A DNA stretch of 59,951 bases. Source: Escherichia coli. GTDB taxonomy: Bacteria > Pseudomonadota > Gammaproteobacteria > Enterobacterales > Enterobacteriaceae. A program made the position numbers and the translations under genes. Of the stretch, positions 2,715-40,580 are shown piece by piece. Position 1 is the stretch's first letter, and every line of letters begins with the position of its first letter. The notes below the pieces were generated by a model. It was not told where the DNA came from. It worked only from the letters and a program-made list of their open reading frames with translations, and searched no databases. Location: the NCBI RefSeq assembly GCF_003334335.1, contig NZ_QOWQ01000031.1, one strand, 5' to 3'.

Positions 2715-4142
2715 ATGAACACCGCACTTGCACAACAAATCGCCAATGAAGGCGGCGTCGAAGCCTGGATGATTGCGCAACAACATAAAAGCCTGCTGCG
2801 TTTTCTGACCTGTGGTAGCGTCGATGACGGCAAAAGTACCCTGATTGGTCGCCTGCTGCACGATACCCGCCAAATCTACGAAGATCAGCTCTCATCGCTG
2901 CATAACGACAGTAAACGTCACGGCACCCAGGGCGAAAAGCTGGATCTGGCACTGCTGGTGGACGGCCTGCAAGCTGAGCGCGAACAGGGCATCACCATTG
3001 ACGTGGCTTACCGCTATTTCTCTACCGAGAAGCGTAAATTTATTATCGCCGACACCCCAGGGCACGAGCAGTACACCCGCAATATGGCGACTGGCGCATC
3101 GACATGTGAACTGGCGATCTTACTGATCGATGCCCGTAAAGGCGTGCTCGATCAAACCCGTCGTCACAGTTTTATCTCCACACTGTTGGGGATCAAACAT
3201 CTGGTCGTGGCGATCAACAAAATGGATCTGGTGGATTACAGTGAAAAGACGTTCACCCGTATTCGTGAAGATTATCTGACCTTTGCCGGGCAGCTGCCGG
3301 GTAATCTGGATATCCGCTTTGTGCCGCTCTCTGCACTGGAAGGCGACAACGTGGCTTCGCAAAGTGAAAGTATGGCGTGGTACAGCGGTCCAACACTGCT
3401 CGAAGTGCTGGAAACCGTGGAGATCCAGCGAGTGGTGGATGCTCAGCCAATGCGCTTCCCGGTGCAGTACGTTAATCGCCCGAATCTCGATTTTCGTGGT
3501 TACGCCGGAACGCTGGCATCCGGTCGCGTAGAAGTCGGGCAACGAGTCAAAGTGCTGCCCTCTGGTGTGGAATCAAACGTCGCCCGGATCGTGACTTTTG
3601 ATGGCGATCGCGAAGAAGCCTTTGCCGGAGAAGCGATCACCCTGGTGCTGACGGATGAGATCGACATCAGCCGTGGCGATCTGCTGCTGGCGGCAGACGA
3701 AGCGTTACCAGCTGTGCAGAGCGCGTCGGTGGATGTGGTATGGATGGCGGAACAGCCGCTTTCCCCGGGCCAGAGTTATGACATCAAAATTGCCGGTAAG
3801 AAGACGCGTGCTCGTGTTGATGGCATTCGTTATCAGGTTGATATTAATAACCTTACCCAACGCGAAGTTGAAAACCTGCCGCTGAACGGCATCGGCCTGG
3901 TGGATCTCACTTTTGACGAGCCACTGGTGTTAGATCGTTATCAGCAAAACCCGGTTACCGGTGGGCTGATTTTTATCGATCGCCTGAGCAATGTGACCGT
4001 AGGTGCCGGTATGGTGCATGAGCCAGTTAGCCAGGCAACTGCTGCGCCATCTGAATTTAGTGCATTCGAACTGGAATTGAATGCCCTGGTTCGCCGCCAC
4101 TTTCCACACTGGGGCGCGCGCGATTTGCTGGGGGATAAATAA
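2715..4142 (+). CDS. cysN: Sulfate adenylyltransferase subunit 1 (GTPase)
   Basis: 475-aa ORF with GTPase P-loop GSVDDGKST; 1-bp gap after cysD. Confidence 0.93.
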
Positions 4143-35743: not shown

Positions 35744-38634
<2,891 letters not shown>

Positions 38635-38717
38635 CGGATTTTATCCTGTTATCAGTAGGGTAGATGTAGTTGTTATCAGTCGACGTGACGGAAAAATGCC
38701 GATGCTGAAACGGAATT

Positions 38718-38807
38718 AAGAAACCGGTTTCACAAAATCATGAATAGTTGTCACTAAATAAGCAAGAGAGTGAATTGTTCATTTTTTATATTTGTGAAAC
38801 CGGTCAC
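38718..38807. promoter_or_regulatory. Candidate AscG operators: two inverted copies of TGTGAAACCGGT in the ascF/ascG divergent promoter region
   Basis: 38720-38731 is the perfect palindrome GAAACCGGTTTC; 38793-38807 is TGTGAAACCGGTCAC. Resembles LacI/GalR-type operators. Confidence 0.5.
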
Positions 38808-38890
38808 CTGAATATTTTTCCCGCCGATTGTGCAAGGACAATCGGCAAACGGTGCAGTACACTGCGTTGATTGCGTGTAAAGGGATGAAA

Positions 38891-39904
38891 ATGATGACGA
38901 CGATGCTGGAAGTGGCGAAGCGCGCCGGGGTTTCAAAAGCGACCGTTTCCCGCGTGCTTTCAGGTAATGGCTACGTCAGCCAGGAGACTAAAGATCGCGT
39001 GTTTCAGGCGGTAGAAGAGAGCGGTTACCGTCCAAACTTGCTGGCGCGCAATCTGTCGGCGAAGAGTACTCAGACGCTGGGGCTGGTAGTGACCAACACG
39101 CTTTACCACGGCATTTATTTTAGTGAATTACTCTTTCATGCCGCGCGAATGGCGGAAGAGAAAGGGCGGCAGTTGCTATTGGCAGATGGTAAACACAGCG
39201 CAGAAGAAGAGCGCCAGGCGATTCAGTATCTGCTGGATCTGCGCTGCGACGCGATCATGATTTACCCGCGTTTTTTAAGCGTGGATGAGATCGATGACAT
39301 CATTGACGCGCACAGTCAGCCGATAATGGTGCTTAATCGCCGCCTGCGCAAAAACAGCAGCCATAGCGTCTGGTGCGATCATAAACAGACCAGTTTTAAC
39401 GCCGTGGCAGAGTTGATAAACGCCGGGCATCAGGAGATTGCTTTCCTTACCGGCTCGATGGATTCCCCCACCAGCATTGAACGTCTTGCCGGGTATAAAG
39501 ACGCGCTGGCGCAGCATGGTATTGCGCTCAATGAAAAACTTATCGCTAACGGTAAATGGACGCCTGCCAGCGGGGCCGAAGGGGTAGAAATGTTGCTCGA
39601 ACGTGGGGCTAAATTTAGCGCGTTAGTTGCCAGTAACGACGATATGGCGATAGGTGCGATGAAAGCGTTACACGAGCGCGGCGTAGCGGTGCCAGAGCAG
39701 GTGTCAGTTATCGGATTCGATGATATCGCTATTGCCCCCTACACCGTTCCGGCGCTCTCCAGCGTAAAAATTCCGGTGACTGAGATGATTCAGGAAATTA
39801 TTGGACGGCTGATTTTTATGCTCGATGGCGGGGATTTCTCACCGCCGAAAACCTTCAGCGGAAAACTGATCCGCCGCGACTCACTCATTGCTCCTTCGCG
39901 ATAA
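38891..39904 (+). CDS. ascG: LacI-family repressor of the asc operon
   Basis: Start trimmed to MMTTMLEVAKRAGVSKATVSRVL (337 aa); appears intact, with no IS insertion. Confidence 0.88.
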   Translation: MMTTMLEVAKRAGVSKATVSRVLSGNGYVSQETKDRVFQAVEESGYRPNLLARNLSAKSTQTLGLVVTNTLYHGIYFSELLFHAARMAEEKGRQLLLADGKHSAEEERQAIQYLLDLRCDAIMIYPRFLSVDEIDDIIDAHSQPIMVLNRRLRKNSSHSVWCDHKQTSFNAVAELINAGHQEIAFLTGSMDSPTSIERLAGYKDALAQHGIALNEKLIANGKWTPASGAEGVEMLLERGAKFSALVASNDDMAIGAMKALHERGVAVPEQVSVIGFDDIAIAPYTVPALSSVKIPVTEMIQEIIGRLIFMLDGGDFSPPKTFSGKLIRRDSLIAPSR

Positions 39905-40052
39905 ACATTGTCATCACATGTCATCGTCACTAGTGTCGATGACATCGTTTTTCCTGCATTACAGAAATTAATTTCCTTAAATAACAGTAAATTAAAAACT
40001 GGCATGATTTGTGAATGTATCGGCGCATTAACTGTCATTGCTGGAGAATTTG

Positions 40053-40580
40053 ATGAACCGTTTCATCATTGCTGACGCGAGTAAATGTATTGGTTGCCGT
40101 ACCTGTGAAGTAGCGTGCGTGGTTTCTCATCAGGAAAATCAGGACTGTGCATCGCTGACCCCGGAAACTTTTTTACCGCGTATCCATGTCATTAAAGGTG
40201 TGAACATTTCCACGGCGACAGTTTGCCGTCAGTGTGAAGATGCACCGTGCGCTAACGTCTGCCCGAATGGTGCTATCAGCCGTGATAAAGGGTTTGTTCA
40301 TGTGATGCAGGAACGTTGCATTGGTTGCAAAACCTGCGTTGTGGCTTGCCCGTATGGTGCGATGGAAGTGGTGGTACGTCCGGTGATCCGCAACAGCGGC
40401 GCGGGTCTGAATGTACGGGCTGACAAAGCCGAAGCCAATAAATGCGACCTGTGCAACCATCGTGAAGACGGCCCGGCGTGTATGGCGGCTTGCCCGACTC
40501 ATGCGCTGATTTGTGTCGATCGTAATAAACTTGAACAACTGAGCGCAGAAAAACGCCGCCGTACGGCGCTGATGTTCTAA
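40053..40580 (+). CDS. hydN: Electron-transfer 4Fe-4S ferredoxin HydN
   Basis: Start trimmed to [15 protein letters not shown] (175 aa); several Cys clusters. Confidence 0.88.

Follow-up and report, generated by a model that had tools for sequence, protein, structure and literature searches.

A conserved AscG operator and a putative CRP box bearing an Escherichia-specific AscG half-site between ascF and ascG of Escherichia coli

The control of the ascFB operon of Escherichia coli by AscG and CRP has been described before. Both the AscG sites of ascFB and its control by CRP were published in 2009 (Ishida, Kori and Ishihama, J Bacteriol 191:6136) and are listed in regulatory databases, and the pair of motifs analysed here is a rediscovery, located at the same locus as the published ascFB AscG operators and identical to them in sequence. 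What the literature provides is AscG repression via a 14-mer that lies within what we call site A, the existence of two AscG sites at ascFB and the targeting of ascF by CRP, with ascF being among the known CRP targets and also recovered by CRP genomic SELEX. In a synthetic-promoter study, the AscG binding sequence of PascF is given as TGAAACCGGTTTCT; AscG acting on this sequence at +1 repressed strongly, and it was all but inert at -61 of a synthetic promoter. The AscG motif in RegPrecise comprises 20 bp and 30 bits. For E. coli itself, our analysis is thus of little consequence, because the sites are already known. What it adds is that site A alone is kept as an operator across genera and that the AscG character of the other site, i.e. 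site B, is specific to Escherichia; it also speaks against a looping model.

Promoters of related design offer several points of comparison. Class-I CRP promoters, in which CRP sits near -61.5 or -71.5 (as in lac), resemble the asc control region in combining a TGTGA-N6-TCAC box with a free spacer, a fixed distance and a weak core promoter. They are unlike it in that the spacer at asc in Escherichia holds a repressor half-site and has A/G edges, and the position assigned to the asc box rests on an inferred transcription start. The loops formed by GalR on OE/OI and by LacI on O1/O3 likewise involve a repressor of the LacI/GalR family and two sites bracketing a promoter. In contrast to these loops, the second asc site is a half-operator placed on a CRP box and is missing at the majority of the orthologous loci, and in a study of chimeric repressors the AscG chimera does not display the published signature of dimer–dimer looping. 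Finally, the PtxS operator of Pseudomonas (5'-TGAAACCGGTTTCA-3') is the same 14-bp palindrome as that of site A, is served by a LacI-family repressor and is found near -10/+1 of its targets. PtxS, however, differs from AscG as a regulator, in its effector (2-ketogluconate) and in its genes, and the half-site common to both proteins thus represents a family-level recognition element rather than homology of the loci.

The window, i.e. the whole 59,951-bp stretch of DNA analysed here, carries K-12-type DNA at this locus: positions 38300-39300 are 100% identical to an MG1655 record, and 3,201 nt compared with NC_000913.3 (MG1655) contain one mismatch. This sole difference, at 37995, makes codon 214 of ascF ACG (Thr) in the window and GCG (Ala) in MG1655. 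The regulated operon begins with ascF (37177-38634, minus strand), which encodes a PTS IIBC transporter for cellobiose, arbutin and salicin and is followed downstream by ascB (35744-37168, minus strand); ascG (38894-39904, plus strand) encodes a LacI/GalR-family repressor of 336 aa. Between the divergent ascF and ascG genes, the annotation leaves a spacer of 259 bp (38635-38893), and both motifs lie inside it, as had been claimed when the region was first read from sequence only. That ascG is intact, another claim of this sequence-only reading, is borne out by annotation, translation and Pfam, which agree on a 336-codon LacI-family open reading frame with the expected domains, i.e. the LacI helix–turn–helix (PF00356, E = 3e-21) and a periplasmic-binding-protein core (PF13377 and PF00532); the translation has no C-terminal extension past its 336 residues. 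The closest NCBIfam models, GalR and GalS, are both matched below their equivalog cut-offs, and AscG is thus a distinct paralog. Each of the 4,701 E. coli records with ascG has the gene in full length or nearly so. In WL164, the lowest-ranked ascG record among those listed, an IS621-family transposase is annotated beside a partial ascG match. Neither the asc control region nor ascG is matched in about 13% (726/5,426) of the complete E. coli genomes.

The two motifs are exactly where the sequence-only reading had placed them: the perfect 12-bp palindrome GAAACCGGTTTC occupies 38720-38731 and the second motif, TGTGAAACCGGTCAC, occupies 38793-38807. Their dyads, taken in the AscG register, are 76 bp apart, which confirms the earlier estimate of about 75 bp and corresponds to 7.24 helical turns at 10.5 bp per turn. 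The sequence common to both, TGTGAAACCGGT, occurs twice in the window, on the minus strand at 38734-38723 and on the plus strand at 38793-38804, and was not found in any of 100 dinucleotide-preserving shuffles. In the repeat search, these copies extend to a perfect inverted repeat with a left arm at 38723-38736 (ACCGGTTTCACAAA) and a right arm at 38791-38804 (TTTGTGAAACCGGT), the arms being 14 nt long, 100% complementary and separated by 54 nt; the 9-mer GAAACCGGT also forms a direct repeat with a spacing of 76 bp. A 12-bp palindrome by itself, by contrast, is not rare: 14 perfect ones were seen in the window versus about 20 expected from Markov-1 simulations (about 0.09 are expected per 259 bp), and the palindrome alone was dropped as an argument for significance. 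The argument is therefore based on the repeat copy and on conservation. Nor is the operator-type sequence TGAAACCGGTTTCA overrepresented in the window when up to three mismatches are allowed (five found versus 2.6 expected).

Conservation was assessed by scanning one genome per species, which yielded 80 loci with relatives of AscG at 66-99% identity in Escherichia, Citrobacter, Enterobacter, Klebsiella/Raoultella, Kluyvera, Leclercia, Aeromonas, Sodalis and other genera, with ascF divergent from ascG in every one of the 80. The intergenic regions analysed, again 80, comprise those of 79 loci and that of the window; one locus of Citrobacter koseri (L020), where the AscF match starts at residue 53, was left out. 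Promoter regions were aligned without gaps, anchored on site A, and a symmetrised AscG matrix built from the 18 distinct site A sequences outside Escherichia was scored over the whole window.

Site A (TAAGAAACCGGTTTCACA, 38717-38734), whose core palindrome (38720-38731, dyad at 38725.5) reads GAAACC/GGTTTC, was found in 80/80 intergenic regions from Escherichia to Aeromonas, with an invariant core and the consensus TAGGAAACCGGTTCCACA; the Aeromonas version is perfectly palindromic over 18 bp (TGTGGAACCGGTTCCACA). It is the top match of the AscG matrix in the window (27.6 bits), has the even palindromic form and the central CG expected of LacI/GalR operators, whose palindromes span 14-20 bp, and co-occurs with ascG in all 80 orthologous regions analysed. 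The published 14-mer TGAAACCGGTTTCT corresponds to positions 38732-38719 of the window on the minus strand, i.e. it lies inside site A. Site A is thus a true LacI/GalR-type AscG operator. The proposal that both motifs are AscG operators holds for site A, which matches the published 14-mer, but not for site B as an equivalent second operator, because site B appears to be primarily a CRP box. Within E. coli, about 55% of the records differ from K-12 somewhere within 38698-38755. The main variant around site A, A38719G, lies immediately outside the core and brings the sequence back to the cross-genus consensus: K-12 has A at this position (TTAAGAAACC), and the aligned strains as well as nearly all other genera have G (TTAGGAAACC).

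The same alignment points to a putative ascFB promoter next to this operator. A strongly conserved 'atgatT' just upstream of site A marks a candidate -10 element (CATGAT, 38737-38742, minus strand), and a conserved 'tctTG' block, 17 bp upstream of the -10, provides a candidate -35 element (TTGCTT, 38760-38765, minus strand). Together, these elements agree with the consensus at 7/12 positions, which makes for a weak core promoter. A scan of 38600-38930 with consensus promoter and terminator models returned no sigma-70 match at threshold; such a scan would miss a promoter because of this weakness, as expected for one that depends on an activator. From the position of the -10 element, we infer that ascFB transcription starts near 38730. 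This would place the dyad of site A at about +5.5, i.e. at the classical position for promoter occlusion, in agreement with the published repression by AscG at +1, and the dyad of the CRP box at about -70.5 (or about -60.5 in those regions where the distance between the two is 65 bp).

Site B has a different evolutionary signature. As a CRP box (TGTGA-AACCGG-TCACC, 38793-38808) it has its dyad at 38800.5, and as an AscG site its dyad would be at 38801.5. Its sequence, TGTGAAACCGGTCACC, agrees with the CRP consensus TGTGA-N6-TCACA at 9/10 positions; taken alone this is weak evidence, since 60 kb contain three matches of this quality versus 1.6 expected. Across the orthologous regions, however, a CRP-like box with at most two mismatches to the consensus is present at this position in 78/80 cases, and the remaining two have three mismatches at the same place. 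The half-sites are conserved (TGTGA or CGTGA on the left, TCAC or TCGC on the right) and the 6-bp spacer between them is unconstrained, occurring in 35 distinct forms. Seventy-four regions have 73-75 bp between the box and the dyad of site A; four others, belonging to four lineages, have 65 bp, exactly one helical turn less. The distance to the ascG promoter, by contrast, is not conserved. With half-sites and distance kept and the spacer free, site B would be a CRP box phased to the ascF promoter; it does not behave like an operator of the LacI family, in which the centre is the most constrained part.

Superimposed on this box is a partial AscG site. The left half of site B together with the spacer constitutes one AscG half-site (TGTGAAACC/GG), and the right half, GGTCACCTG, does not match AscG, being in the CRP register, which is 2 bp out of the AscG register. 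Site B nevertheless ranks second on the AscG matrix in the window, with 13.2 bits as compared with 7.7 bits for the third. Across the orthologous regions this character is rare: a second AscG-like site above 8 bits was found only in four Escherichia and three Kluyvera regions, and the other spacers score around 3 bits or lower. The spacer AACCGG occurs exclusively in Escherichia, with AACCGA as the near-match in Kluyvera. Considered as an AscG site, site B thus fails to co-occur with ascG across the orthologous loci. Within E. coli, a 56-nt stretch around site B is the same in 4,408/4,679 records. The edges of the Escherichia spacer are A....G, as opposed to T....A in most orthologs, and with the preferred T/A flanks lost, CRP affinity may be weaker in E. 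coli; likewise, AscG affinity at site B may be low because of the failing right half. Judged by this comparative pattern, site B is most plausibly a CRP box in the first place rather than a second, equivalent operator, and the simplest reading would be that an ancestral CRP box gained an AscG half-site in Escherichia.

Taken together, the two sites suggest a mechanism in which AscG blocks RNA polymerase at site A, CRP acts as a class-I activator at site B and, in Escherichia, AscG competes with CRP for the latter; we regard this as probable. An AscG dimer bound to site A would cover approximately -4 to +14 and would thereby keep RNA polymerase from the promoter. cAMP-CRP bound to site B, whose centre is at about -70.5 from the inferred start and thus at a class-I position, would recruit polymerase to the weak promoter. 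Only in Escherichia would the AACCGG spacer join with the left CRP half-site to form a perfect AscG half-site with a CCGG centre, on which AscG could compete with CRP, i.e. exert anti-activation. Acting together, both sites would hold ascFB off as long as ascG is intact. According to Ishida, Kori and Ishihama, AscG site 2 reportedly overlaps a CRP box and repression reportedly consists in interference with the binding of CRP and RNA polymerase. As to the basis of the individual elements, the motifs, their conservation and their spacing were computed here, and it is from these that we infer the start site, class-I activation and the competition between AscG and CRP. The near-inert behaviour of AscG at -61 of a CRP-independent promoter fits the idea that AscG bound upstream acts only via the activator.

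An important question is whether site B contributes to repression at all and, if so, in which way. It could be a CRP box and nothing else, with its AscG-like left half being a by-product of shared TGTG...CC letters and with AscG acting via site A alone. This would accord with the ancestral and near-universal state, i.e. a CRP box with an arbitrary spacer, with a right half that is unfit for AscG and with the minimal effect of AscG at -61 of the synthetic promoter, but this promoter was CRP-independent and therefore could not reveal anti-activation. Chance similarity also accounts poorly for an exact repeat of TGTGAAACCGGT where none is expected, for the second rank among about 60,000 positions on a matrix derived independently of site B, for the constancy of its surroundings in E. 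coli (the 4,408 of 4,679 records with identical sequence) and for the two AscG binding sites reported in the literature, and we consider this explanation unlikely. The sequence-only reading had raised the possibility of repressor looping. AscG dimers on both sites would then make contact and bend the 76-bp promoter segment into a loop, in the manner of LacI on O1–O3 or GalR on OE–OI. Two AscG-like sites at this distance do flank the -35 and -10 elements, GalR, as the closest model family to AscG, does loop, and the two ascFB sites have been mentioned in the literature in connection with looping. Yet a second AscG-like site is confined to Escherichia and a few Kluyvera, with more than 65 other species having one operator and a plain CRP box; site B is only a half-operator (13.2 versus 27.6 bits); a distance of 7.24 turns would put the sites out of phase; AscG ends at residue 336 without any further C-terminal extension; and AscG was nearly inert at -61 of the synthetic promoter. 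Moreover, the LLhA/Q55A chimera, which combines the DNA-binding domain of LacI with the AscG core, showed a less than twofold dependence on operator spacing, unlike the GalR and TreR chimeras, a result that its authors themselves contrast with the presence of two AscG sites. Given the single-operator rule, the half-operator nature of site B, the spacing of 7.24 turns and the chimera result, looping is not supported and has to be regarded as improbable.

Two further explanations concern the protein and the DNA segment involved. The sites might be operators not for AscG but for its paralogs GalR or GalS, serving cross-regulation or chromosome anchoring: these are the nearest NCBIfam models of AscG, and an in silico GalR scan lists a position in the ascG–ascF spacer (2839356, 12.7 bits) as well as AAGAAACCGGTTTCAC at 2839425-2839440. 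The same study, however, identified 15 regions bound by GalR in ChIP-chip, none of them at asc, and on these data GalR cross-binding was rejected. In addition, the centre of the GalR consensus is G/T-A-A-N-CG and not AACCGG, and the site co-occurs with ascG across genera, which leaves this explanation with very little credibility. Alternatively, the 14-nt inverted repeats could delimit an invertible element whose promoter is switched between ascFB and ascG. They bracket the -35 and -10 elements, a single strand can fold on the arms (z = -4.0), and in one complete genome, that of E. coli TUM1226 (NZ_CP135719.1; positions 3561-3819 of the segment retrieved as L084), the 58 bp between the repeats, corresponding to 38735-38792 of the window, are present as the exact reverse complement. 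The flanks of this inversion are unchanged, the one base that does not match K-12 is non-K-12 in the other aligned strains as well, and the inferred ascF promoter now points toward ascG. A junction-specific query, however, detected the inverted arrangement in just 1/4,680 E. coli genomes carrying the region, no recombinase gene is annotated nearby, where hycI and hydN are the neighbours, and the repeat is limited to Escherichia and explained by the binding sites. A regulated, fimS-type switch was rejected with regard to the singleton inversion and the absence of an adjacent recombinase, and an invertible element of this kind is the least credible explanation of all. A single template-switch event suffices, and the inversion in TUM1226 is likely such a sporadic event at a quasi-palindrome. 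The preferred reading thus remains that of occlusion by AscG at site A combined with competition between AscG and CRP at site B.

With regard to how this arrangement arose, one can envisage that the ancestral state consisted of the AscG operator and a plain CRP box, and that Escherichia rewrote only the spacer of the latter (from T....A to AACCGG), thereby embedding an AscG half-site. This would have added anti-activation and perhaps crypticity to the existing repression, with the 14-nt inverted repeat as a by-product that occasionally flips the promoter, as in TUM1226. As a whole, this scenario is tentative, and we consider it possible rather than likely. The comparative value of the locus is modest and consists in an activator box that, in a single genus, would secondarily have turned into a composite site for activator and repressor. 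The locus may also serve as a testable example of a repressor half-site evolving inside the free spacer of a CRP box.

Beyond sites A and B, the AscG matrix has its third match in the window at 40050-40069 (TTGATGAACCGTTTCATCAT, 7.7 bits), directly downstream of ascG and overlapping the start codon of hydN, which is probably a chance occurrence within coding sequence. A reported AscG target elsewhere in the genome is the prpR–prpB spacer. In the corresponding segment of NC_000913.3 (positions 2488-2545 of 346000-349500, retrieved as L002), no palindromic AscG site was found, the best matrix score being -9.8 bits; the spacer contains four direct TGAAAC repeats 10-12 bp apart and one GTTTCA. If AscG binding at prpR–prpB is real, it thus has to use a different site architecture, and because a palindromic AscG site is absent there, the prp sites could not be used for refining the motif.

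A TGAAAC half-site is also found in the ascF leader, at 38706-38711 on the plus strand and 16-18 bp from the dyad of site A. It recurs at this spacing in 43/80 regions, is absent in Enterobacter/Lelliottia and Klebsiella/Raoultella, and may represent an auxiliary AscG half-site. On the other side of the spacer, an alignment anchored at the ascG start indicates a putative ascG promoter at 38835-38863 (plus strand), with AGGACA (38835-38840) as the -35 and TACACT (38858-38863) as the -10 element. The latter lies within a 14-mer, GTGCAGTACACTGC (38852-38865), that precedes the ascG start by about 30 nt and hardly varies between Escherichia and Aeromonas. This 14-mer includes the inverted repeat GCAGT-AC-ACTGC and is more conserved than a TACACT -10 element would need to be; it could be either the ascG promoter or else a binding site for another protein.

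A few other features of the spacer deserve mention. Between site B and the putative ascG promoter, positions 38823-38846 can be drawn as a hairpin whose 9-bp stem encloses a loop of 6 nt (GCCGATTGT-N6-ACAATCGGC). The stem is perfect in K-12, is broken by single substitutions in other Escherichia and is not followed by a run of T. An Rfam scan of 38550-38950 gave matches at chance level only (E = 0.45 and 0.89), far below the gathering scores. Immediately upstream of the ascF start codon, the leader (38636-38680) contains CCTGTT(TT)ATCAGTAGGGTA on the plus strand, which is conserved in many genera, and in E. coli this stretch includes the direct repeat TGTTATCAGT at 38647-38656 and 38671-38680. 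In the Citrobacter koseri locus that was set aside (strain NCTC10786, L020, 2080-2500), the late start of the AscF match points to an ascF gene with a frameshift or a lesion at its 5' end; operator, -10 element and CRP box are all intact there.
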